From: Euglena gracilis
Taxonomy: Eukaryota
Reading direction: 5' to 3'
DNA length: 64,000 nucleotides
Assembly: GCA_039621445.1 (NCBI GenBank)
Contig: CP154954.1
Span: forward strand, 1,984,001 to 2,048,000
This document shows positions 14,024 to 49,551 of the stretch, in pieces; the stretch's first letter is position 1, and every line of letters starts with the position of its first letter. Under the pieces are notes generated by a model that was given only the letters and a program-made list of their open reading frames with translations, had not been told where the DNA came from and searched no databases. Both the position numbers and the translations under genes were made by a program.

Positions 14024-14062
<39 letters not shown>

Positions 14063-24338: not shown

Positions 24339-24679
24339 CCGTACACCGTGACGCCGTGAGTACACTGTGAACGGTACCCCACTGTCCGCTGTGTGTACAC
24401 TCTCCCTGTGGACCCTGAACCATGGACCCTGTCTTCCAACCCCTCCAGACCATCTCCAGACCACCTGTGCTGTACACCAGACTTCTCCTCTTCCGTGTAC
24501 CTCTTCCCTGTACCCTCTTCCCTGTAACCTTCCCTGTACGCTGTGCACCTGCAAGTATTGCTTCAAATGAGTTTGACTTTGCAAATTATGTGGAAATGCA
24601 ACTTTTTCTCTGAGTGGCCGAAACCCCCGGGGGGGGGGGGAGTGACTGACGGGCGTCTCCCAAAAAAAGTGACTCACTC

Positions 24680-27420
24680 ATTTTACCTGGCCTCCTAACC
24701 CCCCCCGGGGTGGGTAAGCAATTGTATGGGTCCGTTGTCCGATGAAGCTCGCCGTGGAGACTGCGGAACCTCGCACCGGAAAGACGCTGCTGGGGGTCTG
24801 CAGCACGGACGTCTTGACGTCGTCAGGTTGATCAGGCGTATGGATTTGCTCGTGCTCGTGGTCGTGTGTATTCGCAGGGCAAAAATAGGTGGTCGTCTGG
24901 GTCTGGTTCGAGCCCCGGACAGGGACCAATCGCAGGGCAGAAATAAGGGGTCGTCCGGAGCAGGTCCGTGTTGACGTCGTTCCCGCCGTTTAGGCCGATG
25001 AACTTCGCCGGCTTGCACGCGGACGTCCGGAAAGGCGAAAAGGCTTTTTTTCCGTGGTCGTCCGTGTCGTCGTGAAGGCCGATACAGCTGGTCAACGTAC
25101 TGGCGGTGGTCCGTGAAAAGAATTTTTTTCCTGTCGCAACCCTGTGTACACCCTTTCCTCATAAGTGACGGACGCACGGTTACGTGCGGCTCTGGATATC
25201 ATCCGTCCTCACGTCCTGGTGAACGCCAGCTCGGGGAAGTGGTATGTGTAAACCACATTCTGGCTTCGCAGAAAAGCTGATTAAATCAATGGGGGCCTTC
25301 TGGCAAAATCCGTTCCGGCATGCCAATGCCAATGCCAATGCCAATGCCAAAAGCTGTTTGAATCGTTGGGGAGCATTTTTGAACATGCCTTTGAATCTGT
25401 GTGCATACAAAGGGTCCAACGCATACAAAGCGTCCAACGAACTACTTGCCGGCATCGCAGAAAAAGCTGATTAAATCAGTGGGGGCCTTCCAGCAGAATG
25501 CGATGCCATGCCATGACATTTTTTGACATTTTTGAAAGCGGTGATTGGTCACCACCGGGCCGGCCAAATGGTAAGATGCTCATCCGCCGTCCCTGCAGAC
25601 GCGGTTCGAGCCCCAGACGGAGACCATTCGCAGGGCAAAAATAAGTGGTCGTCTGGATCTGGTTCGTCCTCAAGTCCGTGTCGTCGTGGACGTCGATGAA
25701 CCTTGGCGGTGCGGTGAAAAGGATTTTTTCCCTGTCAGTACGCTGTGTGTAACCTTCGCTGTCCTCACGTCTTCGTATTCGCCAGCCCGGTCAAGTGGTA
25801 AGATGCTCTGCCGCCGTCCCTGCGGACGCGGTTCGAGCCCCGGACAGGGACCATGCGCAGGGAAGAAATAAGTGGTCGTCCGGAGCAGGTCCGTCTTGAC
25901 GTCGTTCCCGCCGTTCAGGCCGATGAACTTCGCCAGCTTGCAGGCGGACGTCCGGAAAGGCGAAAAGGCTTTTTTTTCCGTGGTCGTGTGTGCGGCGGTT
26001 TGAAGCCATGCGAAAAAAGCTGATTAAATCATGTGTTCTTTTTTCGAAATTTCCGCATGCCGACGAAAAGCTTTTTTTTTCGTGCTTGTGTGTGCAGGGG
26101 TCTGAACACGGTTCGAACCTCGGACACCACGGACCACGGACACGGTCGGACACCACGGACCACGGACCATGAACAGCACGGACAGGGTTCGAACCTCGGA
26201 CAGGTACCATTTACAGGGCAGAAAGAAGCGTTCGTCATCCGCCGTCCCTGCGGACGGGGTTCGAGCCCCAGACGGAGACCATTTGCAGGGCAAAAATAAG
26301 TGGTCGTCTGGATCTGGTTCGTCGTCGTCACGTCCGTGTCGTCGTGGATGCCGATGAACCTTGTCAGCGTGCAGGCGGTCTGGTGAAAAGGATTTTTTCT
26401 CTGTCACCACGCTGTATGTACCCTTCCCTGTCCTCACCTCTTCGTATTCGCCAGCCCGGTGCAGTGGTAAGATGCTCCGCCGCCGTCCCTGCGGACGCGG
26501 TTCGAGCCCCGGACAGGGACCATTCGCAGGGAAGAAATAAGTGGTCGTCCGGAGGAGGTCCGTCTTGACGTCGTTCCCGCCGTTCAGGCCGATGAACTTC
26601 GCCAGCTTGCAGGCGGACGTCCGGAAAGGCGAAAAGGCTTTTTTTCCGTGGTCGTGTGTGCGGCGGTTTGAAGCCATGCGAAAAAAGCTGATTAAATGAT
26701 GTGTTCTTTTTTCGAAATTTCCGCATGGCGACGAAAAGGTTTTTTTTCCGTGCTTGTGTGTGCAGGGGTGTGAATATGGTTCGAACCTCGGACACCACGG
26801 ACCACGGACACGGTCGGACACCACGGACCACGGACCACGGACACCACGGACAGGGTGCGAACGTCGGACAGGGACCATTTACAGGGCAGAAATAAGTGCT
26901 CGTCCGGAGCAGGTCCGTGTTGACGTCGTTCCCGCCGTTCAGGCCGATGAACTTCGCCAGCTTGCAGGCGGACGTCCGGAAAGACGAAAAGGTTTTGTTT
27001 CGTGTTCGTGTGCGCGGGGGTATGAAGGGCCTCAGAGAACAACGTTCCACAGAGACTTTTGTTGCGAGCGTTGATTCGTCTCCACCGGACCGGCCGATGG
27101 GTAAGATGCTCATCCGCCGTCCCTGCGACGCGGTTCGAGCCGCAGACGAAGATCATTCCCAGGGGCAAAAGAAGTGGTCGTCCGGATTTGGTTCGTCGGC
27201 AGGTCCGTGCAGTCGCGAGGGCCGACGAACCTGGTCAACGTAGAGGCGGCGATTCGTGAAAAGGTTTTTTCCTGCAATAGGCATAACTGACGGTCCGGTC
27301 GCACTGTTAACGTGACGTGCTGCTCTGGATATGCTCCGTCCTCACGTCCTGGTAATCGCCAGGTCGTGGAAGTGGTGCGTGCAAACCACATTCTGGCTTG
27401 CGCAGAAAAGCTGATTAAAT
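24680..27420 (-). repeat. Array of ~60-aa exon-like repeat units (full-length version)
   Basis: Variants KLAKFIGLNGGNDVKTDLLRTTTYFFP, LTRFIGIHDDTDVTTNQIQTTTYFCP, LTRFVGPRDCTDLPTNQIRTTTSFAP align at protein level. Confidence 0.7.
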
Positions 27421-27953
27421 CAATGGGGGCCTTCCAGCAAAAAGCGATCCAGGATGACAATTTGAATTTATTGGCATTGTTGAATTTGCCTTTGCATACA
27501 AAGGGTCCCAGGCATACAAACGGTCCTACGCGTACAAAGCGTCCAACGAACTACATCGCAGAAAAAGCTGATTAAATCAATGGGGGTCTTCCAGCAAAAT
27601 GCGATGCAGCTGGACAAAGCTGATTAAATCGATGCGGGGCATTTTTGAATTTGCCTTTGTAACTGTTTGCATGCAAAGGGTCCAACGCAAAGCGCAGGGG
27701 AGAAGGTCCACAGGGTCCAGAGGAGGGTCCAGAGGAGGGGTCCAGGGAAGGGTGCAAGGAAGGGTCCAGAGGAGAGGGTCCACAGGGGAGAGGGTCCACA
27801 GGGAAAGGGTCCAGGGCAGAGGGTCCACAGGGGAGGGTGCACAGGGGAGAGTGCGAAGTGTGAACGATGCTCACAGTGTAGACGTAACAGCAGGTCCACA
27901 AAAGGTCCACAGAAGTTCCACAGAAGGTCCACCAAAAAAGGAACACACTGCGG

Positions 27954-30716
27954 TCACTCCGGAGCTTCGGAGTCGTCGTCCGCGGCGGGCTCCGGCAGCG
28001 GAATCGGCTCCGGAACCGGCGCCGAGTCCACCGGGTCCTCCGCAAACAGAACCTTCAACAGCAGGCAGAAACACAAAGAGAAACCAAAAGAACAGCAAAA
28101 GACAGCATGTGGAAGCTGTAAGCTATAAACCAACCCTTTGCTGTGTGCAACACCGGTGCGCGTGTGCGTGCAATGACCTCGGTGCGCGGAAAAACGATTA
28201 TGGGGACTTCATAACAGTGCTTTAACACCTGCCGCCTGTCACCTGCTATCCTGCCTGTCTCTGGCCTTCAGCATCCTCTTCGACAACGTATTTTCACTGC
28301 AGAAATGATATGACTGAGAGTATTCAAAATGTCCTGCAAAGTGACGCAAATTGTCACACGAAATTGCAATCGTGCCGTGTGCGCGCAACACCGTTGTGTG
28401 TGCAACAACCTTCCTGTGCGCGCAACGTGCTGGATGGTCTCTTCGACTGCAGAAAACATATGGTGAGAGCGTGCTGAAAATGTCGCACAAAGAAACCCAA
28501 CGAAGCAGTGAGAAACACGATGGCCACGACGATCTCGTCGATGCCGCCCAGCTTCCGCTTCGCGCAGCGGCTGACTGCAGGGTTGCAGGTTGCATTGAAG
28601 TGTTTCCCTTTGTTATGTACCGTTATTTCCCTTTCTTATGGACGTGTGTGTGAGATGCAAGCGGCAAGGAGTGTTTTGTCTGCAGCAAGGAACACTGTAA
28701 AGGAATGTAATTTGTTGCAGATGACCGCGAATGCAAATGGGAATCCTGGATCCATGTGTGCAAGGCGCGTGTAAGCAATGGGAGAAACCCTGATTCCAAT
28801 CCAGAGGCCACGGCACCGTCACCGTGGCCTCCCCCGTACTGGCGACACCCAAGGTGTCCAGCACCACGACCCCGCCCGGCGGCAGCTCCCGCGCCAGCTG
28901 CCCCGAGCCGTACTCGATAGAGAAGGTCAGCAGCAGCGACCTTGCATTTGTGCAAACACAACGAAACAGAAACAGACAGGTCGAAGTGCTACAGAGCAGA
29001 GTGTGTGTGAGCAGAACTGTGTGAAAATGAGAGATAAAATGTAGGTGAAAGTATGTGAACAGGAGTCTGCAAGGAAAGTCAAGAAACCCAGGAGAGTCAA
29101 TCAAACACAACCAAACGGTCACTGAGTCTGTCCGCCTCGCCGCCCGTGCTGATCGTTGTACCCGCCCACTTCAAACTGCTGACAAAATGCAGCCGCAATA
29201 CTGAAACAGTTTCATAATAATAAATGACAGACAAAATACAGCCGCAATACTGAAACACGTTTGGAGGATTGGAATACGGCAGAGGGGGAGAAACATGATT
29301 TCAAAACCGAACAAAAAAACAGAAGCAGAACTAAAGGCGGGACCAAGGCTTACAGAACAGCAGCTTGAGTGGAACGTAGATGTGGACGTCGTTGCCGACG
29401 TCCACCACCGCCACCCCAACCGGCAGCGGCGTCCCCACCGCTGCGGCCGGCGGCGTGGCCGCGGCGCTCCGCCCTGGGGTGGACGGAGCCATTTACAGGA
29501 TTTGTCTGAAAATTGCACACGAAAGATCGCAGATAAGGAAGTCAGAAAATTACAGGAAATACCTACAACATAAACCATCAACCATCAACCATAATCATAA
29601 CATAAAATTTGCAGGGAATCCTGTGCGACGCCCGCGGCAGCGCCCGCCTCGCTGCCCTCGCCCACAAAAACGTACAGCGGTCTGAAACAGAACAGCCGAT
29701 TGTGTATGTAAATAAAACCGACATTTTTTCAGACTGCTGTCTGCTGTCAGACTGCTTCTGCTGTCCTGCACGGAGCGGCACGTGATGAACGGCTCGTCGT
29801 AGGAGCAGTTTCAGAGAGCTTTTCTTGGAGAGGGTATGATGCGAGAGCATACAAAGTGAAAAAGGCACTTGCAGTCTGTCAACGTGCAGAAGATTCTCTG
29901 GCAGAAAATATGACAGAAGAGGGTATGAAATCAAAAAACTGCCTGCACTCTGCTGCCGCGACCGTCGGAGGATCAACTCCTCCCGGCACACCCCGCACGT
30001 GCCCAGGTGGTCCGCCAGCAAGACAGAGAGGGCTGCCAACACAAAGAATGCATGCAAGACGTTGTGTCGGAAAAAGCTGATTAAATCGAACGCGCTATCA
30101 AAACATTGCGAAAATTGCGTGGTTTGTAATTCTGAGAATAGCTGATTAAATCGGCAGAGAATGGCGGGGTTTGTAATTCTGACAGCGATTCTTTGTAATT
30201 CTTAAAGCGGTAGAGAGTAGCGTACTTTGTAATTCTGAGAAAAGCTGATTAAATCGGAAGAGAATCGCGCGGTTTGTAATTCTGAGAACAGCTTGTATTT
30301 TCTGTTCCTCGACAGGAGACAGTGTTGACCGTACACAGCCCTTTCTCTTTCTTGAATCCGGGCATCAGGGACTTGCTCTCCACCAACACCTCAATCTCCT
30401 CGAGGCTGTAACAGCAGCATCTGAATTGTTGAATTTTTAATTATTGAAGTAGAATTATTGATCAGGTTTGGGGAATAACAAAGAAGAACAACCATAAAAA
30501 CAGCAGGAGTAATGACAACAACAGCAATTTCCTGATGCATCATGGCGTGTGGAAAAGTCAGTTGCTTGCGTGTGGCGTGTGGCGTGTGGCGTGTGGCGTG
30601 TGGAAAAAATGGCGTGTGGAAAAGTCAGTTGCTGGCGTGATCAGGAAGTGACAGTGACCATTGACACTCACACGGCGGGCGGCGGACGGGACGGCGACGG
30701 ACGGAACGGCGGACAT
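27954..30716 (-). CDS. Second multi-exon cargo gene of unknown function, downstream of and co-oriented with RepHel
   Basis: Exon islands MSAVPSVAVPSAARRVSVNGHCHFLITP (ATG 30716), YSLEEIEVLVESKSLMPGFKKEKG, LLADHLGTCGVCREELILRR, VAVVDVGNDVHIYVPLKLL, IEYGSGQLARELPPGGVVVLDTLG, KRKLGGIDEIVVAIV, AEDPVDSAPVPEPIPLPEPAADDDSEAPE* (TGA 27956-27954); splice sites not resolved. Confidence 0.5.
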
Positions 30717-31335
30717 GGCAAGACAGGAAAGCGGAGCACGGAAAAGCTCTGTAGAGGAACGCAAACTTTGAAAAACTACGTAGACAAACACAGGATGTGC
30801 CGAAAATCCTCAAACAACCCATCATGCTGCATACAAATAACCCATCATGCTGCAGCATAACGCATCATGCTCTCTCCCACAGGACGCTGCAGGACAGTGC
30901 GCAAAAGTAATAATAATAATAATCAGAGAATAAAATAAAGGAAAACTGAAGGAAGAGACAAAAAAGGAATTTGAAAGCGAGCGCAAATGACGGCTAAATG
31001 GAGGAAGACAGTGATGCAGTCGCTAGGTATGTGAGCGAGTGAAGCCTATGAACCGTGTGAAGTGAGTGCAAATCGAAAGTGAGTGCAAGCGGAAAGTGTT
31101 TGCGGCAGTGAAACGTCGAAGAAGGGTTGGTGACAGGAGAGACGGCGACGCTGCTCTCCTGCGAAGAGAAGTGAGGCTTTCAGCAGCCACAGCCATGGAA
31201 ATCGCTGTTCACCGATTTAATCAGCTTTTTTATCACTTGGATTAAGCAGCGAAATACAGGCATACGTTCTACACAGGCACGCGTTCTAACTTCGAGCAGA
31301 TCCCAGCAGACCCACGGAAGTTGCACGTGCACACC

Positions 31336-34300
31336 TCATTCGAGCACTTCGTGCCACACGATGTTCCTCACCCCGGTATCGTCATCCGGGGATCATCCTC
31401 TCGGTTCCTCTGCACGTAAGACTGTGCAAGGTGCCCTTTTCCAGAAGTTCGAGAAACACAAAGTTGCTGCAATACAGAAGACATACCATGTCTTTGCAAC
31501 TGACTTCGACTGAATTCCACTGAAATCGACTGACTTGCTGTGACGCGCACATCGCAACTGACTGGGTGCGACACGCGCGTTTTATCCCAGTTATTGATGA
31601 CTGCTGGAAAACCGAGGACGCGCGGCAATCCAGAGCTTCTCTCCATCACCAACGCGGCTGCAACCAACGTACAACTGGCCGTGCGAGAAGACCGGAGACG
31701 GCAGCCACAGGCCGACCCGCTCAAACGTCTGCCCCTGCGCCTTGTTGATGGTCATGCAGAAGGCGAGACGCATCGGGTACTGTCGGCGAGTAAAGGGTAG
31801 GCTGCCGTCGGTGTTCTCCGCGGACGTCAAATTGATGCGCGGTACGCACACGATGTCCCCCTTTCGCGGACCGCTTGCGAGCTTCACCTGAATGCTTCGA
31901 CGGCGCAGCGCAACGACGATGGCGCGTGTTCCATTCATGACACCCTCGTTGCGGTTCATGTTGCGAATGAACACGACGGGCGCCCCGAGCTTCAAGATGA
32001 GCTTGTGTGGCGGAAGACCGGGTGGCGTGAGGGAGTTGAGCAGCTCGATGGAGTACTGGGCTTCCAGCTCCGCGTGCTCCGGTCCGAAGCAATCTGCACT
32101 CAAGTACGTCACGGGCTCACCGTGCAAGACGTCGAGCACCTTGTCGTTCAGGTGGTCAACGTACTTGTTGAGAGTGCTCAGAATGCACGCGTTCTGGACC
32201 ACTGCCGTCGTGTCGCGCAGTGCAGGGAACACCTTCTCCACCATGTCCATCGGTGTGTCTATGTCCACCTGCATGCGCTCGGGAACAGTGATGCTGCTCT
32301 CCTTGCCATCGCCGATGTCCAGCAGCCACTGCGCGAAGTGTTGCATCCGCTGTGCCATGGCCGGTTGGTCCACGAGGCGCGCCACCCGCATGTTCATCGT
32401 CATCTTCAAGACGGTGAAATGCCGCCAGAGATGAGACTCCTTCACCGTGGAGTTCACTATCTGTCCGCGGCCAGCCTTCGTGAGCACGGGGGTCAGTTGA
32501 CGGAAGTCACCGGAGAGGACGACCACCTTCCCACCAAAGGGAACATCCGCAAGACGCGCATCCACGACACGCATGATGTCGCGCAGCAGGCAGTCAATCA
32601 GTTCGTACATTTCCTTCCGGCCCATGGTCGCTTCGTCGATGACTATCAGCACCGCATCACGCAGTACCTTCGCCCGTTCGCTTTGTACAGCAAGGCTGCT
32701 CTTTGGTTCCTTGTCCACCATGGGTACTGGGACACCAAAACGGCTGTGTGCCGTTGTTCCTCCTGGCAGCAGCAAAGCGGCGATGCCGGTGAGGGCAGTT
32801 GCAATGACAATGCATTTGATCCGCGAACTGTGAGCCCTACTCCACCGTGCACCTGGCCTGAGTTGCTGGAAATTCGTTTCACTTTCGAATTCAGTTGCAT
32901 TCAATTTCCGCCTGTCGGAATGGTTGAAATCAGAAAGCTGATTAAATCAGTCACCCGTGGCGTTCAATTGCGTGGAATTGAATTTGTGTCTGTCGGAATG
33001 CGTCAAGTCGGAAAGCTGATTAAATCAGTGACCCCTACCTTTTTTCCGAAGCTGATGCTGGCAGCAACGATCCAGTGAAAAGTGTGCACAATTCCTTCCA
33101 TCGGTTCAAATGCAGCTGGCAATCATTCCTTCCCCTCGAACATGTGCCAGCAGCAGCTCGAGGAGGAAGGTCTTCCCGCAACCACCACAGGCGTATACGA
33201 AGAAACACTTGGCGTCCGTGACGGGCTTCGCAAGCGCTGCCAAAATCGTGTCCACCACGTTCCGTTGCTCGGCATTGCACTGCGACAACAGGTTCTGCGC
33301 CTTCTCTTTCTCCTTCGCGGTGTCGTAGCACGTCTCCATGCGGCGGCATTCTGCTACAGACGATGCTTGACGCGGAGCGTGCGGGAACGGCATGTCGGAG
33401 AACTCCCGGAGCGAAGATCCCTGTGCCTGGAGCAACTTCTCGATGTCCCACAGCGCCTCGTTCTCCAGCTCAGCATCGGTGGAGTCCAGATTGTCACGTC
33501 GGCGGCGAAACACCTTGTCCTCCATCATTTTTCCCTTGAACTTCTGCCACAGCGCTCGCGCACTTCTGGGGCGATTGAAGTCCAGGATGATCGCGAACAG
33601 AGAGCGCAGCTGTGCCGGCATGAGGAACTCTTCGGCCTCCGTCATACAGCGCTTCCACTCCTCATCGTCCTGCAGTAACCCGCGGCGGACACACGCATCG
33701 TGGAACGTGGGCGAGACCTGTGACTCCACCGTGCGCAACATTTCCCACGACGTTGCTCCCTTCACGTGGTGCAGCAGCATGCGCAGGTAGTATTTTTCCC
33801 CCTGTCGCGGAGAAACGAAGTACACGCGGCCGATGGCTCCAGTCTGCTCGGGGTTGGCGCGTCGTGACCACATCCCGCGGTCCATGCGATACTCGGACGG
33901 GAAGTCAGCGTACGTGAGGTGAAGACCGTCGCTGTGATGGAAGTTGTACTCCAACCACTGTGTCAACGCTGTGTGCTCGGCACGGTCTGCAACATCCGCG
34001 AGGTCTTCCATCTCGTCGAACGTCACAGTGTGCTGACCGGGAAGGTGAATAGGCAGGCGCATCACGCTCGGCTGGTTCCCGTGGAGGTCGAAGGAGAAGA
34101 ATCGCCACAGAGCCTCGCTCGTAGAAATGTAGCGACCCTCCTGCCAGCGCTGTATCTCGTCCACGTCCTCCAGCACTGTCGGTTGCGCCTGCATCTCCTC
34201 AGCAGCACTGCCTTCCACCGTCTCACACACGTTCGCTGCGTAGTCTGCAGCAATCTGCACTTCCGCACGGTCGCCACCCTTGTGAATGTACTTGTGCAGG

Positions 34301-37300
34301 TACTTCACAGCATGAAGCGTACTGCACACTTCCACGTTCAGGTGACAGCCGTACTTCAGGAGCAGCGCACGATTGTACGGCACCACCCAACGGTCGTCGA
34401 TGGCGATGCCTCGGTGAGTGGTGTACGTTGCTGCGCAGCGGCGTCGGTACAGTGGGTAACCGTTTTGATCCTCCTCGGTCTCCAGCTGACGCCGCTTGGG
34501 GAAGTGCCGAGTACACTTGCCGTTCTTCACGCACGGTGCGGAGTTGTCGTGCCCGACGCAGGGGTTGTGCAGCATGTGCCGCATGACCAAGTCGTGCAGT
34601 TCGGGCTCGCGAACAGGATCGGGGATCTCCGCACACACCACGCTGTCGTAGTCGGCAGGCGTTGACAGCTTGCTCTCTGCCGTGAAGAACAGCAGGATGT
34701 GCGCATGTGGAAGTCCGCGCTTTTGCCACTCCACCGCATACAGGTGAGCAGCATGACGACCGAGGACGCCGTTCCGCAGGTCCATCATGAGCTCTGCCAG
34801 CTTCAGGTGAAAAACGCGCGTAGTGAGGTCGATGCGTTGCGCAGCACTGTCTCCAGCAGGAACGGCGTTTTCGATCTCCTTCCACTTCGAATTTGCAAAC
34901 ATGTTCCAATACCATCCATTCTTGCCAGTTGCGCGTCGCAACTGGCAACTGTTTGTCCGAGGAAAAGCGAACCTGATTTCTGTCCACACAGGATGCTGAC
35001 AGCTGATATACAGCCGAGAGCTGTATCGTGATAAAACACAGAGAACACCGGATCTAAAACCGCATTAAAGCCTTCTTGAGAAGCTGATTAAATCCGAATA
35101 CTGCCGATGCCTCTCTTGTTTTACCGTTGCCTGACCAAAGTGAACTGCATGAGAACATGCTCGAAGTGATAGTGATGAAAAGATCGGCCTTGCCCAGCTT
35201 GCGGACGATGGCCATGCCGTCGTGGTACAGCTGCGTCATGTAGCGCGTTCCTCCTACGAACGTGCTCGGCAGCACGATGCGGCGACCCACGGATGCGGAC
35301 GGTGTGCCCTGCGTAGACTGCGTCACGACATCCTGGTACACGTCGGCGCGAATGGTGTCCTGGTTGTGCCGCAACCACGACAGCTTCTGCTGCTCCACCT
35401 TTGCCCACTGTACCACAACCCACTCCTGGTACAGCGCCCCGCACCGCTGCAGGTAGGAGGGGCTGATGGCGTCCGGACGTGTCATGAGGTAGTACTTGAC
35501 GTACTCTCGCAGGGTGACGTCGTTCTTTCGCGCATTTGGTCGGCGTTGCGGTTGCAAGTCCGCCACGTTCACGCGGGCTGGTCTGCGCGCAGGTTGCACC
35601 ACCGTTCTCTCAATCCCCGGCGTCCAACCGTAGTCACCGTACGGAAACAACAGCACGAAGTGCAACGGATCGTAGCACGGGTGAAGCTCGTCGATGGTGA
35701 TGAACCCCGGCCGCTGAGCGCGCACGCGAACGATGATATCCCGCGGCGTAGCTGCTGCTCGAGCATCCACCTCCGGCAAGAACACAGCCACGTCGCTGGC
35801 GGTAGGCTGGTTGTATCGACGCCGGTCTTGATGGTGGCCGACGTTACTCGCAATCCTCATCACAAAACTGAGGCGCGACTTCTTTTTTCTGTTCGGCTGA
35901 GTGGGAGCTGATTAAATCGGAGCTGATTAAATCAGAGCTGATTAAATCGGAGCTCAGTAAATTGCCTGAATTCCACTCACAAAACTGAGGCACGACTTCG
36001 TTTTTCTGTTCAGCTGGGTCAAAGCTCGGAGCTGATTACATCGGAGCTCATTGAACGGGAGCTGATTAAATGGCCCGAGTTCCATTTGAAATCCTCATCA
36101 CAAAACTGAGGCACGACTTCTTTTTTCCGTTCAGCTGAGTCGGAGCTGAATAAATCGGAGCTGATTGAATCGGAGCAACCAACACTCTGACTGACGTGAA
36201 AACAGAAGCCACGTTTGGATCGTGGATGCCGGAGGCGCGCTCAATGACCTGAACGTACGGGTTGACCTGCTGCAACATTTCCGTCAGCTGCCGCACCACA
36301 TCAGCACGCAGTCGATCTCCCCACCGCATTTGCGTGCGCGCGTCCACCTGCGCCTGCGTGTCCAGAACATACAGCTGCGCGCAAGAGTGCGGCATCCCCG
36401 GCGGCGGCACCAGGGCGCCCATGCGGTGGTGGACGGTGCCGTTGATGCGGAAGGTCTGCAGCCCGGTCGGAAACTGCCGCGACAGCAACGTACTGCATGG
36501 AAACAGCCGCAACACAGCAAACTGAGTTCTGTTTCCGCAACCAACAGGAAAAAAAAGTCAGAACAACCAACACCAAGCAACAACCAACACCAACCAACAA
36601 CCGAATAACAGCAACCAACACCAACCAACCAACCAACCAACCAACCAACAACCAACCAACACCAACTAACAACCAACCAACCAACATCAGGGGAAAAACA
36701 CCAGAGAAAAACCAACACTGAAAAGGAAAGTCATGCAACACATTGCCTTCCACGCGCGCAGTTGTGGACGCCATGTTCAGGGCGGCGTTGTACAGCCGCA
36801 GGCGTTCGACAACGTGACGGCTCTCCGGCAGCCGACGGTGGAGGATGTCGTCCAGGTACCGCGGGGGACGTTGCAGTGCAGGCAGAACAACCTTTCCTTG
36901 TTCACAGCACATCCCCTCGGCCTCCCCCTTCCACCGCAACGCACCACATCGCAGACAAAGGACGTCGCCCATGCTGCCCACGTTGGACACCGTGACGTGC
37001 GACAGGTCGTCGCCACTGCGCCCGCGGAACATGGCGACCATCTGCTGCCGCCGACGCTGACGGTGCGCGCGGACTGCGTCCCGAGTTCCCGAGCGGCGTT
37101 GTGCGACACGACCTGTTTGGCGTTGCGCAACCGCTGCCTGTCGATGCTGCTGTTCCGCAGCGGAGAACAGCACGTTCCGTGGTTCTCCGACAGCTTGCGT
37201 AGGCGGGTTGCGCGGTCGCTGCGCGTCCTCGTGCTGATCACCGTGCTGTTGAGCACCCTGTTGTCGTTGTTCGGCAGGCGTGAACAACGACATGGACGCA

Positions 37301-37392
37301 GCATGCTGCTGGTTCAGGAACGCCGCCATGGATGACACCACCACACGCGGGGCTGGTGGCACCAATGGGGACATTGCCTGCACCGGCAACAT
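31336..37392 (-). CDS. Helitron RepHel transposase (Zn finger, HUH/Y2 Rep, PIF1-family SF1B helicase). Exons 37392-36749, 36480-36213, 35872-35163, 34894-33118, 32805-31622, 31390-31336 = 1545 aa; probably extends further upstream
   Basis: CLRCGALRW...CCEQGKV; RRYNQPT; Rep motifs DLFITIT, VEWQKRGLPHAHILL, KYLHKYIHKG; helicase ACGGCGKT, IVIDEATM, GDFRQLTPV, MTINKAQGQT, HGQLYVGCSRV; C-terminal RNIVWHEVL*. Confidence 0.95.
31391..31621 (-). other. Nonconventional intron (231 nt)
   Basis: GC|GCGTCCTCGGTT...AACCGAGAGGATGATC|C; +4 pairs with -6; join reads WIAAPDDDTGVRNIV. Confidence 0.75.
32806..33117 (-). other. Nonconventional intron (312 nt)
   Basis: C|AGCTGCATTTGAACCG...CGGATCAAATGCATTGTC|A; perfect 9-bp stem from +4/-6; join reads GMIAIATALTGIAA. 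Confidence 0.9.
34895..35162 (-). other. Nonconventional intron (268 nt)
   Basis: C|GAGCATGTTC...GAACATGTTTGC|A; 7-bp stem from +4/-6; join restores DLFITITSNSKWKEI. Confidence 0.9.
35873..36212 (-). other. Nonconventional or intermediate intron (340 nt; alternative 35870-36215)
   Basis: C|GTGGCTTCTGTTTTC...GAAAAAAGAAGTCGCGC|C; join reads HDPNLSFVMRI. Confidence 0.75.
36481..36748 (-). other. Nonconventional intron (268 nt) containing a (CCAA)n-like microsatellite
   Basis: A|AGGCAATGTGTTGCATG...CATGCAGTACGTTGCTGTC|G; 16-bp stem with G-U pairs; join reads TTARVERQFPTGLQTFRING. Confidence 0.85.
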
Positions 37393-37396
37393 CAGC

Positions 37397-37559
37397 GCGT
37401 GGCAAATTTCACTTTCCACCCCACAGTCCATTGGCCATCGAAACGAAAGAATAATACTAAATCACCAACAAAGATACAACAGCACAGCCCCAGAGTAAAA
37501 CATACTCTCGGGGACCAAAAATACGCTCAAAAACACAAAACAAAAATAACATTCGCCAC
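37397..37559 (-). other. Nonconventional or intermediate intron (163 nt) linking an upstream Ala/Pro-rich exon to RepHel
   Basis: C|GTGGCGAAT...ATTTGCCACGC|G; join reads ...PPARMSLTLMLPVQAM. Confidence 0.7.
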
Positions 37560-38593
37560 GTCAGGGACATTCGGGCTGGAGGTGGGGTCGCCCCTGGAGG
37601 GAAGAGGCTCGCTGCACCTGCTGTCGGCGCTGCCGTCGCGCACGCTGCAAGCGCCGGTGCCAGTGCACTTGCACGTGCAGTCACCAAATTCACTGAAACG
37701 AAGAGCCTTCCTTTCACAACGGCACAAACAGCCGCATCAAAAACCACAGAAACAAAAACAGGGGGAAAAAGTCACACCTACAAACCCAAAGCAGCAGCAG
37801 TGACAGGCAATGAATTGGCTCCCTTCAGCTTCAACAACAAAAACAGAGGAAAAAAGTCACAGCTACAAAAACAAAGCAGTGAGAGCCAATAAATTCGCTC
37901 CCTTCAGCTTCAATGAATGCACGTCCAGCTGGCAACGTCACCGTCGTTGAGGCCGCTGCTGACAACCATGCAGGAGCACTAATGCAAAATCCAAAATGCA
38001 AACGACCGTCTAAAAAAACCCGATTAAAACGGCATTTTGGGTTTTCTCTTTTGCATCTGAAGAAAGCTGATTAAATCATTCTTGGGTTTCTGTCGCTCTT
38101 CCTTTCTCTGTTCCCTCTCTGTTATTTGGTTATCGCATGCAATACAGCACGATTGTTCACCGGCGACGGACAACAGGTCTGCTATTTCTGCTAGTTTTGT
38201 TCAACAATATCACTGCTACAATTCCTTTTACCATTCAAATGAAGAATATTACAAAACCCCCAAAGCCCCAAAAAAGTAATAACCCAAAAAAAATACAAAA
38301 GAACATCAACAAAAAGAACCCCTACAGCCTGCAATCGTCCTGGAGGCTGCCCCCCACGCACAGCCGCCGCCGCTGCCCCGGTCGACGGCGTGGTGGACGA
38401 TGACGCCTCCTCATCTGCAAAGACAGAGTAAGATTTTGGGTTTTACTGGACTTCGAAAAATTTCGAAAGATTTGGGAATAATACCCCCCCCACCAAATAA
38501 TACCCCCCCCCCCCTCGGGACGCGAATTAGGGCGAAAAAAAATACCCCGGGGGGTATATTTGGAGGGTCAGCTTAACTAACTTAATTTCCACT

Positions 38594-38809
38594 ACCCTCA
38601 CCCCCTCAAAGTGGCCACCCTCCAGGCATCGTGGGACCCAAATGGCCACTCCAGGGGAGGGGGGACACTTTGGAGAGGAGGTCAAATTTTGGCCTTTGCC
38701 GCCTTTGGTGTCGAAGGAAAATTAGGGGTAAACCCTTTGAGGGGATAAACCAGAATTTGCCAAAAAACTTGGCCACGTTTGGGGGGTGACATTTTGAGGG
38801 GGCGAGGGT
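38594..38809. mobile_element. ~215-bp MITE-like element (intact mirror near 61929-62144; LTR-interrupted copies near 48914-49108 and 53039-53233)
   Basis: Terminal inverted repeats ACCCTCACCCCCTCAAA / TTTGAGGGGGCGAGGGT; no TSD established. Confidence 0.55.
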
Positions 38810-40938
38810 GAGTTAAATTTGGTTAAGGTAAATTGGGTGAAGTTAACTTCACTGGTGAAGATTACTTCACTGGTGAGGTTCACTACAAGAGAACTTGTTT
38901 GTCAAAAAAAAATGGCCAAAATGACATTCTTTAAGAAATTTTGATAAAAGTCCACAACAAATGCACACAGAGTGACGACCATTAACAGAATGGCGGCGCA
39001 TGTCTTATGATGGTATGGTCGTGGGTTGGAAACCCACGAGGTCACACAGGTCCTTTGAGGGGCGAGACCGTGCCAATTAAGTACATCGCCAATTTTTATT
39101 TTGGAATTCATCCAACACTTTTTCAGGCGGGTTGCTGCCTTCGGGTCCAAAAACAGTCTCCCCTTTGGCTGTAAAAAAAAAAAACTTGAACTGCACTTTT
39201 TTTGCAGTGCCTTTGACTTGTTTTTTTCTCACATGGGATGACAACAACACATAAACCCAATTTTTAAATGGGAAAAAAAGGTGCTTTGCACACAAAAAAA
39301 GGAGAAACGGTCTGAAATTTCTGAAAAAGGTAGAACATAAATTACACGGCGGAAATTAAAAAATGAATTACGCCGTAAGTTACGCGTAAGTTACAAGTGA
39401 AACTTACAATTGTAAATTACGTTGCAATGCTACCAGGTGCGAAGCGCCGAGGAAACTTTTTTTATGGCACAACCAAAATGTATTTTTTTTCTGTCCCCCT
39501 GGCCCCAAAGGGGCCGAGACGTTAACGCCTTTTTTGAATTCCAATGCTCCAAAAAATTTGAGCTAGAAAGCGAAATCATGGGTAGAACCCCTTTGGAAAC
39601 CCCCCAACTCAACCCAACTGTCGACTTCGCAACCTGGGGGGGGGGCAGCCCCCCCCCCCCCAGGTTGAGGACAATTCTTTTCTGTTTTTTAGGGGGGTTT
39701 CTTCCACAAAAATTTCATGTTTCCCCTCCCCCCTTTTGCCATGCGATTCTTTTGTACTTGTGCAATCTCCCCTTTTGCCAATGGGACATATTTTGGGTCA
39801 AATTAATACGCCAAAAAAGGCGCCATTGTTTGGGTCGAAAATCTTTTCACCTCAAATCTTGGCATTTCTTTCCATTTTTTTGACCATGTCAAGACAAATT
39901 TTCGATGGTTTGAACCAGAAAATTGATGAAAAGCGACCAAAAACGCCACCTACATCAAAAAGCAGGCTGAAATGATGAATGAAAAGAAAGGCTGGGTGAT
40001 GAAGGTTGATGCATTGTATGAAAATTGAAAGCTCGATTCTCGGGTCACGGGCGGGTCACGGGGGGGTCACGGGGGTAGCACCCCCCTAACCCCCCCAATT
40101 GGCCATCTGGACCTGTCCTTCATAATCGCGAACCCCCGAAAAACACCCGAATAAAGGCATTTTCCCTTGAAATGAGAACCCCCCCCCCCTAATTGGCCAC
40201 CTGGGCTTTGGCCAATTAGGGGGGGGGGAATAAGGGGGGGGTGTTTAAAGTGAAAATACTGGCTACCACTCTTTTTACAAGACACAAATGTTTTGCAAAA
40301 TGCATCTGAATTTCGCAAAACCCATCATTGCCAACCTCAATTGGACGAAAAATGTCGCAACTGTCTCGGGGGTAGGCAGTACAGTTGTGATTTTCTGGGG
40401 ACCCCCCCCCCCCCCCCCCCTTTCAGCTTCCCACCCCCCCCTCGGACCCCCCCCCTCCCCCCCTGTGCCTTGTTTCCAAGGAGGGGGTTTGCATGGTGCA
40501 GAGGAAGTGCATCACTTTGTAGGCATCAAGGCAATACCGTAATAAAATGTGCTCACACTGCGGGTCGCCGAGATTGCTCAGGACATGTCAAGCTTCCTTC
40601 ATTTGGTCCACCAACGCTGGCACCTCTTTTTTTTAAACGTTGTTGAAGCCGGGTGCTCCATTGGAAAGCCCAAGACTCGCAAGCCCTGGCCAGGCAACCA
40701 TGGGACTTTTGGGGGGTGGTTCGGGACGCGGGGGGGACGCGGGGGGGGGGACGCGGGGGGGACGCGGGGGGGAACTGTGGCCCAACCACCCCCACACGTT
40801 TTCTTTGGCGTCACCCGAATTTGTATGAAATTTTCATTTGGTCGCCCAAAAAACATGCCCGGCCGAAATCCGGGACGCGGGGGGGACGCGGGGGGGGGAC
40901 GCGGGGGGGACGCGGGGGGAACACCCCCTTGGGATGGA
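38615..40938. repeat. 2.3-kb non-coding block P, present four times in alternating orientation (38615-40938, 46799-49108 inv, 53039-~55240, 59816-62123 inv)
   Basis: Same spurious ORFs recur on alternating strands (e.g. 39736+, 47759-, 54155+); G-run repeats GGGGACGCGGGGGG at the inner end. Confidence 0.92.
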
Positions 40939-40939
40939 A

Positions 40940-41525
40940 CGGAACGGGGCAACTCAAAGTTTGGGCATTCTGTGTTTGATTGGACTTGTGGTGGTCCCCA
41001 AAGGCGGCGCTTCTGCAGATTCAGGTGCACCCCGAGGCGGCTGGAGCTTGCATGGATGATTCCAAGGCCTCCATTGCGCCTACGAGGTGCCCATCATCCA
41101 GATACCATGCATTCATAGCGAGATCCCTTGGGAGTCCTGTCACCACATCTTGCCGTGTCAAGGCGAAGAAGAGCGGCCCAAAGGGGTCACCTTGCTGCAC
41201 TCCTTGCTCACTGGTGAGTTTGTGGCCTTGCGAATACAAGAAGGAGTGAGTCGCATACGACAGGCGAGCCCATGCTTCCAAGTCCGGGGCTCGTGAACGC
41301 ACTGCATCAAGCAGAGCTTGCCGATCCACCGCATTGAAGGCGTTCTGGAGGTCGACTTGCGATGCCCATGGACCATTGGGTGTGTTTTGCACGTAGGAAT
41401 GCAGTCCTTAGGCAATGGCCACACAGGCTCCTTCCATTGCCATCCCACTTTGGTTTGGTGAGCAAGTCTGCTGCACTTGCCCGCAAATCTGGCGATCAGG
41501 GATCGTAGGATCCGCGAAGCATGGG
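40940..41525 (-). pseudogene. Non-LTR retrotransposon RT fragment, CRE/SLACS-like
   Basis: QVDLQNAFNAVDR, GVQQGDPFGPLFFAL, AWYLDDGHLVG, HLNLQK; frameshifts; both ends missing. Confidence 0.85.
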
Positions 41526-41555
41526 AACACATGGGAATGGACAACACACCCACCG

Positions 41556-43600
41556 TTACCCGTGAAGGATCCCGATGGGGCGGCATTGATGGAAGGAGCG
41601 ACAGAGAGAGGAGAATCGTTCTTCAACAGATTGGTTTGGGAGTGATAAGTAGGGGGACAGGTTCCAACGGGAGATCGGGTCAGCAGGTTGGAGGGACGAA
41701 GGGCACCAAAGTAGGTGGGCAATGAGTTTGGTACGTGTAAGAAAGTTCAGTAAACGGCGGAGGTCTTTACAAAGGGGTAGGTTCGAGAGGGAGGGAGTGA
41801 AGTGCGAAAGGAGGTGGAGAGCGGAAAGGTTGTCACCAATAATAGTGCAGGGATGGAGACCAGTGTTATGGGCGAAGTGGACAGCTTGTTCCAAGGCAAG
41901 CAGCTCGGCACGTTGTTGGGATATGGCTGGGCAGTGGATTCGTTGGATTCGGCATCCGACGGTGGGGCAGTAAAGGCCGATTTGGCAGCCTTCAGTTGTG
42001 AGGGCGGCGTCAACGAAGATGAGGGGGTTGAATAGGGGAGGTGGGATTGGGTCGAAAGCGGTCCAGGGTGTGAGGCCTTGTAAGAGGAGGTGGAAGAGGG
42101 CCCTTCGGAGTTTTGGAAAGGCGTGGTCGAGCCGGCCAATTGTGTACTTTGTCAAGTACCATCCCTGGAGGAACAGGGTTGTTCCACGATGAGGTCGGTG
42201 GAACCACAGCATGTAACCGGTGAGGCGGTCGATTACACGAGGATGTAGGGGAATATAGGCGCATAGGAGGCATAGGGCAAGGGCCCTTTGGGATGTGGCA
42301 AGGGTGTTTTGGATGGTCCGATTGCAAAGGTTGAAGACCTTGCCCAGCCAAGTGATTTCTTGTGTCGGCACAAGGGAGGATTTGGGGGAGATGAGGAGGT
42401 TATTTGAGAGAAGGGTAGATGTGATGGTGCTGGTCACGAGGTTGCAGAGGGAGTACGATGGGGCAAGGACGAGAATGTCGTCATAGTAGGTGAAGATGAA
42501 GAAGTGTGTTCCGTTGGTGTACGTCGAAGGGAGGGAGGAAAGCCTGCTTGATAAGGTCTTGAAGGGTAAGTTGGGCTAGTATGGGGGACATGTTCCACCC
42601 GAAGGGAAGGCAGGGGAAGTAGAAGGAGGAGGTGCGGAAGGCGTGCTTGGCGGAAGGAGGAAGTTAGAGACTCCAAAAGAAATTGGTGAGGTCGATGGTG
42701 GCAGCCCACAGTGTGCCGGGGGGGAATTTGGAAATGGTGTGGGAGATTTGGGGAAGGGAGGGGAGGTGGAATGGTGGAGGGTTGGAGAATGTGTTCGCCC
42801 ACCGCAAGTCGGCAATAAAGCTGACTTTACTGCTGTTTTTGGGGTGGATAAAAGAGGCCATGTTGGAGGAGGGGTGGAATTCCCCCGAAGATCTTGGCAG
42901 GGGAAGAAGGAACTTGTCCCGTGCCAAAGAGTGGAGAAGGACAAAAGTGAGTGGGGAGGGGCGTCGCTGAAGAGACGGCGGTGGTGGATGGTAGAGGAGG
43001 GTGTGGACGAGGCTGGGGGGGACAACAGTGTCCCAAATATGGGTCGGGATGGGATGCGGCAAGCCCGCGTTCCGCAAGTTCTTGAGGGGAGGCACAGTTC
43101 TGCAAAGTTGTGGGGCGAGTATAAGAAGATAGGGAGGAGAAAGAGGGAGGAGAGAGAGAGACGACCCATGGTAAGGTGCAGAAGCGATGCAGTTTGGAAT
43201 CCAGGAGGACATTGAACATATTCCGGAGTATATGGTACATACACTTCCTGGAAATTGGATGGGGGAGGTTAAGTTTTGACAAACGACCGGCTAGGCCCCA
43301 CAGTGTATTGCGGGAGGGGGATGGTCGTTGACTCGAGAGGCGGCGAAGGGTAGACGTCCGTGGATGGCAGCGGCTGGGGGTAGTGCGGTGGTGGGCCAAT
43401 TGCCCAAAGGACCCCTTGGGGAGAGGACGGGGTGGCCAAGAGCCGATTTGCGGGGGGGGCGGGGGGGGGCTGGCGCCGGGGCAGAGGTAGGCCGAGGGGA
43501 AGCGCCTGTCCCGTGGGGGGGCAGTGCACCAGGTTGGCGTGACCACCCAAGGTGTCAGTTGCGGATGGTATTGGAAAAGGGCAGTTGGCTGAGGACACTG
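41556..43600 (-). pseudogene. DIRS/Ngaro-type retroelement RT + RNase H
   Basis: RT: FIADLRWAN, TIDLTNFFWSL, CLPFGWN, YYDDILV, ITWLG. RNase H: IFVDAA, QQRAELLA, IGDN, WCPSSLQPADPISR. In-frame TAA at 42664-42666 and frameshift near 42450; no tyrosine recombinase seen. Confidence 0.8.
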
Positions 43601-46450
43601 GGGGGCTGGGGTTGGCGGAAGTCGCGCAGGGAAGGAGGGAAGGGCAGGGGCGGGAAAAGGTGGAGGTGTGGGGTTTGTTCTTTTGTGCAGACCAGGAGAG
43701 GCCCATTTTTGCGATGTGGTGGTGTTTGGGAAAGGAAAACCCCACAAAACCCCACAAAAATGGGTTTGGGAGGAATGGGGGGAAAAGTGCACAAGGTCGG
43801 AAGGTATGGGACAAGGGGGGGAATGGGGGAAGGGGGGGAAGGGTGTTGTAAATGGGGAAAGGAAAGATTGGACAAAAGGGGGTAAAATGGGGACTGGGAG
43901 GAAGGAAGGGAATGTCCAGATTTTGTGAAGCGGGAGGCGGAAGGGGGGATGGAAAAAACATGGGAGAAGGATGGGAAACCACAGGTACTGGTCTGGGGGC
44001 GGGCGTTCGTAGGATCCGCGAGCATGGGAAGAGACATGCAACAAAGATGGGTTTAACACATGGGCGGACAAAGATGGTGGAGCGAAGGCAAAAGAGGAGC
44101 GAGAGAGAAAGTTCGTTCTTTGATGGGTCGGGTGGTTGGGGGGGGGCGAACAAGGAGGTGGAGGACGGGTCAGCAGGTGGGGAGTTGGGGGAGGTGGGAG
44201 TGTGTTAAAAAGTGTGGAGTTTGGGAGTAGGGAGGGGGAGGCAAAGAGGGGGGATGTGGACCGAGGGGCGGGAGATTTCAGTTGTGAGGAGGGGCAAGTC
44301 AAGAAGAGTGAGGGGGGAGTGGATGGTGGTGGGGTTGGATTCCAGGGGGGCAGTTGGGAGGGGGGGGGCGGGTGTTGGAAAGGCGGGAGCGGTTGTACGT
44401 CAATGGGGGGGTGGGGGGGTGTCGGTGGGGGATGGGTCGTGAGGCCTTGTCCACGGGAGGGGGGAATTCCCGTAAGAGGGTGGGAAGGGCCTTCGGGTTT
44501 TGGGTGGGGGTCGACGATTGGAAAGTACATCCCACGAAGAAAATGACGATGTGTCGGCACAGGGAGGGAGGGGAGATGAGGGAGGGGGGTTGAGAGAAGG
44601 GTAGATGTTTGGATGGTGATAGAGCAGAGGGCATGTGGCCGGGGCAAGGATGGGTCGGGGAAGATGAAGTGGGAGTGGGTGGGCGAGGGGGGTTGAGAGA
44701 GGTGGTAGTGGGGTCGAGGAAGGTGGGAAGAGGGGGGCTGAAGGGGAAGAAGGTGGGTGGGGAGTAGGGGGGGGAGAATGTACGAGGGAGGGTGCAGAAG
44801 GGGAGTTGGGGTGCGGAAGGAGGACAGGTTGGAAGGAGGAAGTTAGGTGGTTGGAAGGAGGGGAAGGAGGTGCGGGTGGCGGAGGGGAAGTTCGAGACTC
44901 CAAAAGAAATTGGTGGGGGGGGGCAGGAATGTGTGGGGGGGGGAATAATGGTGGGAGTTGGGGAAGGGAGGGGAGGTGGAAAGGTGGAGGGTTTGTGTTC
45001 GCCCACCGCAAATCGGCAATAAAGCTGACTCTGCTGTTTTTGGGGTGGATAAAAGAGGCAGGGGAGGAGGGGGAATTCCCCCGAAGATCTTGGCAGGGGA
45101 AGGAACTGTCCCGTGCCAAAGAGTGGAGAAGGACAAAAGTGGGAGGGAGGACGGCGGTGGGGGAGGTGGAGGTGGGAGAGGCGGGGGGGGACAACAGTGT
45201 CCCAAATATGGGTCGGGATGGGGATAGGAGCCGCGTTGTCCAAGCGTGCGTTCTGCACGTTGTTTGGAGGGGAGAGCACAGGTGGCATCGTTGTAATATT
45301 TCAGGGTGAGTATAAGAAGCCAGTTGAGGGAGAGGACGGAGAGGAGGAGAGAGATAAGACGACCCATGGTAAGGTGCAGAAGCGATGCAGTTTGGAGATC
45401 CAGGAGGACATTGAACATATTCCGGAGTATATGGTACATACACTTCCTGGAAATTGGATGGGGGAGGTTAAGTTTTGACAAACGACCGGCTAGGCCCACA
45501 GTGTATTGCGGGAGGGTGGATGGTCGTTCTCGTCTCCTTGACTTTTCGAGAGCCGGCGAAGGGTAGACGTCCGTGGGGATGCAGCCGGCTGGGGTAGTGA
45601 GTGCGGTGGTGGGCCAATTGCCATTCGGGGAGGGGTGACGGCGGGCCTAGATATCTTGGCAGGGAAGATTTGTTGAAGGGGAGAGCAGCCATGATTGCGT
45701 GCGGGGGGCCGGGCAGCAGCGTAGGCCGAGGGGAAGCGCCAGGTTGTCCCATGAGAGGGTGGGCAGTGCACCAAGGTTTTGGGCTGGTACTTGTCCAGCT
45801 GGGGCAAGACGTCCCAGGTGCCGCGTGACCACGCCCAAGGTGTCAGTTTCCGGCGGATAGGTATTGGAAAAGGGCAGTTGGCTGAGGACACTGGCCCGGG
45901 GTTGGGCTGAATGTCGCCGCAGAGAAGAATCCATTTTTTTTCCGGGAAGGAGTAGGGGTTTGGCGGGAAAGGTTTAGGGAGGTGTGTGGGGTTTGTCTTT
46001 TGTGCAGTCAGGACCAGAGAGGCCCATTTTTGCGATGTGGTGGTGTTTGGGAAAGGAAAACCCCACAAAACCCCACAAAAATGGGTTTGGGAGGAATGGG
46101 GAGAAAGTGCACCCAAGGTCCTCGGGGGAACACATGGGACAAGGGGAAGGGTATGGCAAATGGCGCAGGAATGTTGGGGGGGAAGGTGTGTAAATGGGAA
46201 AGGGAGATTGTTTACAACAGTGGTCGTTAAGATTCCACTGGGAGTGCAGGAAGAATGTCCCAGATTTGGAAATGGAAGGAGGGGGGCATTTGGCAGTGAA
46301 ATGGGGAAGGGGGGTGTGGGGGAGAAATTTGGATGATGAAAGAATTGTGGGTGAATGTTGGGTCGCTGGGTGTGGATGTGCTGTAAAATGATTTTGTTGG
46401 GGGAAGGAAAAGCAAGGCATCGTGTAAGGACAACACTAGCCCAGGGAGTG
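43600..46450 (-). pseudogene. Second, heavily corrupted G/A-rich copy of the same RT region plus its upstream ORF
   Basis: Islands such as FIADLRWAN (~45000-45030) and TNFFWSLEL (~44890-44915) embedded in purine runs. Confidence 0.6.
45892..45933 (-). other. 2A-like peptide motif WILLCGDIQPNPGP (indel-bearing mirror at ~56942-56981)
   Basis: Matches the D(V/I)ExNPGP consensus except E to Q; lies upstream of the RT coding region. Confidence 0.65.
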
Positions 46451-49549: not shown

Positions 49550-49551
49550 CT

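Follow-up and report, generated by a model that had tools for sequence, protein, structure and literature searches.

The window analysed here is a 64,000-nucleotide (nt) stretch of contig CP154954.1 (positions 1,984,001 to 2,048,000), and its minus strand carries, at 31336-37392, a complete Helitron Rep/helicase (RepHel) gene with the Pfam domains Helitron_like_N, PIF1 and Pif1_2B. Reading this gene in a single frame requires the removal of five internal segments, designated i2 to i6; with the proposed segments removed there is one open frame of 1545 codons, from an ATG at 37392 to a TGA at 31338-31336, with no stop or frameshift. At least four of the five segments have no GT-AG or GC-AG solution compatible with homology, and the ends of all five, as well as those of a further candidate (i1) upstream of the ATG, pair with each other in one common register. 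Judged from the sequence, this is probably a coding-competent Helitron RepHel gene interrupted by nonconventional introns of the euglenid type.

The RepHel Gene and Its Interruptions

The stop-to-stop frames on the minus strand between 31.3 and 37.5 kilobases (kb) each hold pieces of RepHel. In the frame ending near 35163 the match to Helitron_like_N (PF14214) covers profile positions 1-120 (expectation value, E, 5.5e-25), and in the frame starting near 34894 it covers 107-191 (E 2.4e-19), both matches being above the 28.9-bit cut-off of that family. The latter frame closes with a match to PIF1 (PF05970) at positions 2-53 (E 4.7e-07); PIF1 positions 51-219 (E 1.2e-50) were matched in the frame starting near 32805, which also contains Pif1_2B_dom (PF21530; E 4.7e-15). 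Since the Helitron_like_N and PIF1 matches are each divided between frames, two conserved domains are both cut in two, and the breaks fall exactly across i4 (Helitron_like_N) and i5 (PIF1). Removal of the segments places the Rep domain and the PIF1-family helicase in the same frame. The translation displays the H-x-H and two-tyrosine motifs of Rep, and the catalytic and helicase motifs, Walker A included, are in place along the 1545 codons. Base composition also differs, the exons having a GC content of 58-66 % (75 % at third codon positions) and the interruptions 42-49 %. An earlier note on this DNA had described an intact Helitron RepHel; the Pfam domains, the single frame and the alignment of homologues agree in supporting that description. 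In transcript order, all on the minus strand, the parts of the gene are:

37397-37559, minus: i1, candidate intron or outron 5' of the ATG; 163 nt, GC 42 %, T/G-rich, unanchored, stem of 9 + 7 pairs
36749-37396, minus: RepHel exon with start codon ATG (37392-37390), N-terminal, Cys-rich motif; GC 65 %, no Pfam family
36481-36748, minus: i2, interruption of 268 nt with a (GGTT)n-like repeat; 16-pair stem, GT-AG alternative exists
36213-36480, minus: RepHel exon, aligned by tblastn of P0003, P0004 and P0015; GC 66 %
35873-36212, minus: i3, predicted nonconventional intron, 340 nt, GT...GC ends; stem, spacing as in the nearest relatives
35163-35872, minus: RepHel exon with the beginning of the Rep domain (Helitron_like_N 1-120); GC 61 %
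34895-35162, minus: i4, predicted nonconventional intron, 268 nt, within the most conserved Rep motif; gap-free junction, 11-pair stem
33118-34894, minus: RepHel exon, remaining Rep domain and helicase start with Walker A (Helitron_like_N 107-191, PIF1 2-53)
32806-33117, minus: i5, predicted nonconventional intron, 312 nt, situated after Walker A and before the next motif of the helicase; gap-free junction, 9 Watson-Crick pairs
31622-32805, minus: RepHel exon, PIF1-like helicase core and 2B domain (PIF1 51-219, Pif1_2B_dom)
31391-31621, minus: i6, interruption of ~231 nt before the last exon, exact borders uncertain; in-frame stop, conserved motif downstream
31336-31390, minus: last RepHel exon, 55 nt, conserved C-terminal motif (as at homologue C-termini), then TGA 31338-31336

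Homology anchors the internal interruptions to different degrees. Twelve homologues are collinear across i2-i5 by tblastn, and in the first exon the alignments of P0003 and P0015 cover 36957-36646 and 37032-36739, respectively. At the i4 junction none of the 17 aligned homologues shows a gap, in agreement with an earlier set of 15, and the i5 junction is gap-free in all 15 homologues that cover it. At i3 the proposed junction leaves a spacing of two residues between two conserved positions, as is the case in the closest relatives, P0123, P0124, P0015 and P0158. Homologues differ in length in the i2 region, and homology consequently fixes only the frame there.

At the 3' end of the gene, the unspliced frame before the last exon stops at 31593-31591, which parts the helicase from a conserved C-terminal motif encoded by the last exon. 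Of the 17 homologues aligned, 15 extend to the C-terminus, and 14 of these share the motif; the end of the RepHel model lies within a few residues of the homologue ends. Because the last exon encodes this motif, the i6 interruption is real and, as had been proposed, lies within the conserved region. The collinear and gap-free alignments, together with the single frame, likewise bear out the proposal that removal of the five internal segments restores both the frame and the RepHel motifs. Segment i1, being upstream of the ATG, has no homology anchor.

Conventional Splicing as an Alternative

All GT-AG, GC-AG and AT-AC pairs that keep one open frame were enumerated within 18 nt of the proposed borders or, for i6, within a range of its own. 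There were no pairs of any of these kinds for i5; for i4 there was no GT-AG or GC-AG pair and only three AT-AC pairs, and in the range scanned for i6 there was no GT-AG or GC-AG pair and two AT-AC pairs. The AT-AC pairs at i3, i4 and i6 are put down to chance. Conventional GT/GC-AG splicing of i4, i5 and i6 was rejected on the basis that no frame-keeping GT/GC-AG pairs lie in these ranges. Segment i3 does start with GT, and each of its GT-AG readings adds 2-4 codons; as only such codon-adding readings are available, GT-AG splicing of i3 is disfavoured. Given that i3-i6 are without a homology-compatible GT/GC-AG solution, at least four of the interruptions need to be removed by other than GT-AG splicing. 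Each of the six segments has a purine as its first nucleotide and C as its last, so the earlier observation that none ends in AG is correct. The wider claim made with it, that the gene is split entirely by non-GT-AG introns, is upheld for i3-i6 and not for i2, for which there is a GT-AG reading (see below), or for i1, which may be no intron.

Terminal Stems

The pairing of the segment ends follows a single register in all six cases, +k with -(k+2) (+4 opposite -6), whereas registers 0, 1, 3 and 4 gave only noise in every segment. From i1 to i6 the uninterrupted runs comprise 9, 16, 9, 11, 9 and 7 pairs, including 8, 12, 7, 8, 9 and 6 Watson-Crick pairs, respectively, in accord with the stems of 7-16 pairs in one common register that had been noted before. 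We compared these with 20,000 random segments of the same lengths from the window. Random segments reached 7, 8, 9 or 12 Watson-Crick pairs or more with probabilities of 0.0015, 0.00055, 0.0003 and 0.0001 at a fixed register, and of 0.022, 0.008, 0.004 and 0.001 when the best of 42 slide/register combinations was taken. Over all observed Watson-Crick counts the chance ranged from 0.0001 to 0.003 (fixed register) and from 0.001 to 0.054 (best of 42).

By its stem, each junction was also ranked against the in-frame alternatives up to 40 nt to either side (2,187 junction pairs). The proposed junction ranked first for i2 and i5 and second for i3 and i4, and the only candidates for i2-i5 that equalled or bettered it were the same helix displaced by 3 nt. 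The pairing of the ends of i2-i5 is far beyond chance. In full-length minimum-energy folds, 15/15, 15/15, 14/14, 13/15 and 12/13 of the terminal pairs of i1-i5 are kept, with a probability of ~1. The stem of i6 is weak, with a rank of 4 among the 2,187 pairs and none of its 11 possible pairs in the full-length minimum-energy fold.

Helices of at least 9 pairs at a spacing of 100-400 nt occur 8-16 times per kb in both background and shuffled sequence. As such helices are common in the background, a stem carries weight only where the junction is independently fixed, and i1 is not counted because it is unanchored and comparable helices are frequent. The fold energies of the terminal 10 nt range from -3.5 to -11.5 kcal/mol, mostly within the range of -2 to -10 given for nonconventional introns of Euglena gracilis in PMC11170887, and this energy test separates poorly in the repeat-rich window (P = 0.005-0.23 against random segments). 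Short direct repeats at the borders allow the segment borders to slide by 0-2 nt only.

Fit to Euglenid Nonconventional Introns

In the junction model presented for euglenids in PMC4770533, positions +4 to +6 pair with -8 to -6 and the intron ends are brought together; a purine is expected at +1 and at the start of the downstream exon, and a pyrimidine at -1 and at the end of the upstream exon. The +4 to +6/-8 to -6 pairing is present in all six segments, with one G-U pair at +4/-6 in i3. A purine is found at +1 in 6/6 segments (51/55 reference introns in PMC4770533), a pyrimidine at -1 in 6/6 (49/55) and a pyrimidine at the upstream exon end in 5/6 (49/55), although, since the borders can slide, the earlier choice of junctions may have favoured this rule. 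The register also corresponds to the 3-nt and 5-nt spacers of the genetically defined Euglena code, N3-CDG ... CH'G-N5-6|R, as it appears in PMC12501133.

The segments thus resemble the euglenid nonconventional introns of Milanowski (2014/2016), Guminska (2018), Gao (2024) and Nomura (2025) in having non-GT-AG borders, a terminal helix, 3- and 5-nt spacers, a purine at +1, a pyrimidine at -1 and mostly pyrimidine|purine junctions; they share with them borders that slide by way of short direct repeats, lengths of hundreds of nt and internal tandem repeats. Segments i1 and i3 are like the intermediate euglenid introns, which start with GT and have every nonconventional feature otherwise; Milanowski et al. 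(2016) give the GT or GC start of intermediate introns as a result of keeping the purine at +1. Nonconventional introns make up 57-72 % of Euglena introns (PMC11170887, PMC12501133), the figures being 16,151 of 28,337 introns in E. gracilis (PMC11170887) and 71.8 % in E. agilis (PMC12501133). As they are the majority class, any multi-intron gene of Euglena, a transposon gene included, is expected to carry them. In Euglena, the release of nonconventional introns as full-length circular RNA is reported as a hallmark. Removal of the segments from RNA by the euglenid machinery, in a host that is itself a euglenid, is what we infer from this fit.

Under the favoured reading, this would be a young autonomous Helitron gene, coding for a Rep endonuclease with a PIF1-type helicase, in a nuclear genome that uses nonconventional introns of the euglenid type. 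Its pre-mRNA would contain five internal introns, of which at least i3, i4, i5 and i6 could not be removed by GT/GC-AG splicing. A helix formed by the ends of each intron would bring its two splice sites next to each other, staggered by 2 nt; the nonconventional-intron machinery of the host would cleave between a pyrimidine and a purine at either site and ligate the exons, yielding a RepHel of 1545 residues. Segment i2 would be either of the same nonconventional type or a conventional GT-AG intron, and i1 either an intron of the 5' untranslated region or part of an outron.

Weighing of the Alternatives

Several observations weigh against the reading of this gene as a complete Helitron with ordinary Euglena introns. 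Helitrons have the ends 5'-TC ... CTRR-3' and a 3' hairpin, and insert between A and T without target duplication. Canonical ends of this kind were not seen at the only breakpoints visible around the element, 27031/27032 and 37589/37590, which border the segment that holds the gene (see below). Secondly, i2 has a GT-AG reading of equal length, with donor GTGTT at 36741 and acceptor at 36474, which is compatible with homology, and this donor is close to the conventional E. gracilis consensus, GTGTG, in PMC11170887. Thirdly, a purine begins only 4/6 downstream exons compared with 55/55 in PMC4770533, the exons after i3 and i6 starting with C. Lastly, the CDG/CH'G (CAG/CTG) core is found in 0/6 segments at the proposed junctions. 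The paired triplets at +4 to +6/-8 to -6 are instead GCG/TGC, CAA/TTG, GCT/AGT, CAT/ATG, TGC/GCA and TCC/GGA (i1-i6), and CDG/CH'G matches elsewhere within 30 nt of the borders are unrelated to the helices.

The missing core had already been remarked on, as had the fact that all stems differ. According to PMC12501133, 61.2 % of the nonconventional introns of E. agilis have the core and 38.8 % lack it; in E. gracilis, a test intron was no longer spliced once a single change was made within CAG or CTG. If 61.2 % of introns carry the core, none in five has a probability of ~0.009 by our own arithmetic; this is unusual, and is the chief point against these being ordinary Euglena introns. The RepHel segments thus differ from typical euglenid nonconventional introns in their lack of the core, in the two downstream exons that begin with C and in their position in a transposon gene, and their removal is predicted. 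That structure rather than sequence defines these introns is a fair hypothesis, given that 0/6 have the CDG/CH'G core. Of the description of the segments as euglenid-type introns, the geometry and the border rules hold up; the exceptions are i2, which may be conventional, and i1, which is perhaps no intron.

These exceptions lead to a mixed set, in which i2 is a spliceosomal GT-AG intron (36741-36474), i1 is part of an outron that spliced-leader trans-splicing removes just 5' of the ATG at 37392, and only i3-i6 are nonconventional. We hold this to be a serious possibility, if a somewhat doubtful one. Besides the GT-AG reading of i2, it is consistent with the frequent combination of conventional introns with nonconventional ones in genes of Euglena (PMC12501133), with the T/G-rich, unanchored nature of i1 and its location 5' of the ATG, and with the established occurrence of spliced-leader trans-splicing in euglenids (PMC11170887). 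However, the stem of i2, at 16 pairs, exceeds all others in length and ranks first of 2,187 at the nonconventional junction, and the stem of i1 keeps all 15 pairs in the minimum-energy fold.

It is improbable that the host is not a euglenid and that the segments are of the type known from the introner elements of Amoebophrya (Farhat et al. 2021) or the introns of hemistasiid diplonemids (Thakur et al. 2025). Both of these are mostly non-GT-AG with pairing ends in the accounts of PMC7789003 and PMC12621601, and the RepHel segments likewise are non-GT-AG with pairing ends that unite the exons. The average lengths (120-240 nt), the 8-20-nt inverted repeats and the GC content of nuclear genes (~54-58 %) reported for Amoebophrya in PMC7789003 would also suit such a type, as would the absence of the CAG/CTG core from the RepHel segments. 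However, the Amoebophrya elements have direct repeats of 3-5 nt across their borders and form repeated families (PMC7789003), whereas the borders here slide by 0-2 nt and no second copy of a segment, and no family, was found in the window. In hemistasiid introns the median lengths are 37-91 nt, the 5' sites are rich in C/G and the end dinucleotides are different ones (PMC12621601), whereas the RepHel segments are longer and their border rules are euglenid. In addition, the segments show the purine/pyrimidine rule at their borders and a 3-nt/5-nt stagger, both of which are features of euglenid introns (PMC4770533; PMC12501133).

The least likely alternative is a dead Helitron copy, in which the segments are recent insertions resembling miniature inverted-repeat transposable elements (MITEs) that are kept in the RNA, the open frame reflecting only their recency: this would suit the terminal inverted repeats of 7-16 base pairs (bp), the dense repeat mosaic of the window and the suspected MITE origin of euglenid nonconventional introns (PMC12501133; PMC11282704), but it is hard to reconcile with five insertions in 4.6 kb of exon without a stop or frameshift, with border direct repeats of 0-2 nt and hence no target-site duplication, with segments that each occur once in the window, with inverted repeats that begin 1-4 nt inside the segment with a fixed 2-nt stagger rather than at its ends, and with nearest relatives that break at the same residue as i4.

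Relatives and Intron Positions

The nearest proteins to RepHel in the collections are short frames from environmental contigs. In P0244 and P0344 (63 % identity) and in P0258 and P0246 (54 %) the similarity begins at model residues 540-543, and the i4 junction lies at 542|543; in P0244, 34 unrelated residues precede the point where the similarity begins. By contrast, the similarity continues uninterrupted across the i4 junction in P0007 (50 %) and in 41 of the 120 short proteins. For P0366 and P0504 (52 %, the nearest to the helicase exon), the similarity begins four residues after the i5 junction, which is weaker evidence. These breaks suggest that the i4 intron position was inherited within the nearest Helitron clade, and their coincidence with the i4 residue argues against a recent disabling insertion. 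No copy or transcript-derived protein above 63 % identity was found in the protein collections by word-index searches and a full HMMER search. When metagenomes were scanned with P0001, 13 loci of 36-42 % identity were obtained, not including the contig of P0001 itself, and these loci were not used further.

Helitron RepHel genes of plants and animals reportedly contain spliceosomal introns, as Kapitonov and Jurka are said to have described in 2001. The gene in the window is like those in being a split Rep/helicase gene that needs host splicing, with the same domain order and catalytic motifs. It differs in that their introns are GT-AG whereas at least four here are not, and in that canonical ends were not found here.

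Surroundings of the Gene

The RepHel gene lies in a region that is duplicated, with 1203-9831 recurring as 19239-27031 plus 37590-38433 at 99.2-99.8 % identity in a self-BLAST comparison. The sequence between the two parts of the second copy, and a second gene within it, are:

27032-37589, minus: extra segment of 10,558 bp, in one duplication copy only; contains RepHel and another, small split gene
27955-29492, minus: small GC-rich split gene downstream of RepHel; first exon with 83 % GC at third codon positions

The breakpoints of the extra segment (27031/27032 and 37589/37590) overlap by 3 bp (GCC), and the segment starts with ~650 bp that are similar, at 80-87 %, to the repeat flanking it. 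We rejected the 10.56-kb segment as a clean Helitron insertion. Given the 3-bp overlap, the lack of TC/CTRR ends and the repeat-like start, it is read as an insertion or deletion rather than as marking the element borders, and the breakpoints may represent a microhomology deletion. The small split gene has no match to a Pfam family; at least its first putative intron starts with GTAAG and may be conventional.

A 13-mer, AGCTGATTAAATC, occurs 52 times in the window at no more than one mismatch, against 0.03 expected. Its extended consensus is approximately AAAAGCTGATTAAATC[AG]G. It is strongly strand-biased, lies in i3, i4, i5 and many non-coding stretches (e.g., 5799-6031, 27409-27630, 30075-30255, 32936-33026 and 35906-35948) and in places forms tandem arrays of 15 or 26 nt; we did not find it in the literature. 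Within i3 there are three tandem units of ~120 nt with the 13-mer. No second copy of any of the segments i1-i6 is present in the window, this window-wide 13-mer being the only sequence of theirs that recurs.

The remainder of the window is rich in repeats. An inverted duplication (38433-51000 versus 51260-62305, centred near 51.1 kb) has arms of ~12 kb that are 91-99 % identical in several blocks; either an element with long arms or a fold-back of the assembly could account for it. At 13722-16430 and 16834-18641, and also at 1-469, there are long tandem arrays whose units measure ~46 and ~183 nt. A frame at 41559-42575 on the minus strand, within the strongly G/C-skewed 42-46 kb region, has a weak, sub-threshold match to RVT_3 (RNase H-like; E 0.0058) and may be a retroelement remnant. 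Pfam searches of 25 other frames of the window gave nothing above cut-off, no Rfam family was matched in the window, and no marker gene of the host was seen there.

Implications

The observation in the earlier note was largely right, and as far as the sequence can indicate, it would represent one more instance of a known intron type rather than a new mechanism. Our literature search found no description that links nonconventional introns to Helitrons; the relevant passages of a diplonemid genome paper merely mention Helitron-like frames (PMC10161547). The proposed dependence of the transposon on the splicing system of its host would hold as it does for any intron-bearing transposon gene. The suggestion that the transposon may disperse that system is unsupported, as no intron sequence recurs in the window except the common 13-mer.

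What deserves following up is the lack of the CAG/CTG core and the conservation of the intron position. In a search for sequencing runs containing this sequence, which listed no RNA run, 0.23-0.68 of the sampled words were present in the DNA runs (0.51-0.68 in 19 of 20), which may point to a high copy number. If the element is multi-copy with five such introns, its paralogues could be used to test whether a stem alone suffices without the core. A bolder scenario, for which we would claim only a slim chance, is that this Helitron lineage has long resided in euglenids, with intron positions inherited by and shared among relatives of 54-63 % identity, that the core-less introns form a second class of nonconventional splice signal that is read purely by structure, and that the introns of the many copies make up a covariation set. 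If true, the paralogous introns of a multi-copy element would be the first large natural covariation set for this splicing reaction. A practical consequence is that gene finders based on GT-AG borders will miss intact transposases in such genomes. Were the junctions confirmed in RNA, not only host genes but also transposon genes would be shown to be processed by the nonconventional system of euglenids, a result that would fit the published idea that this system neutralises insertions.

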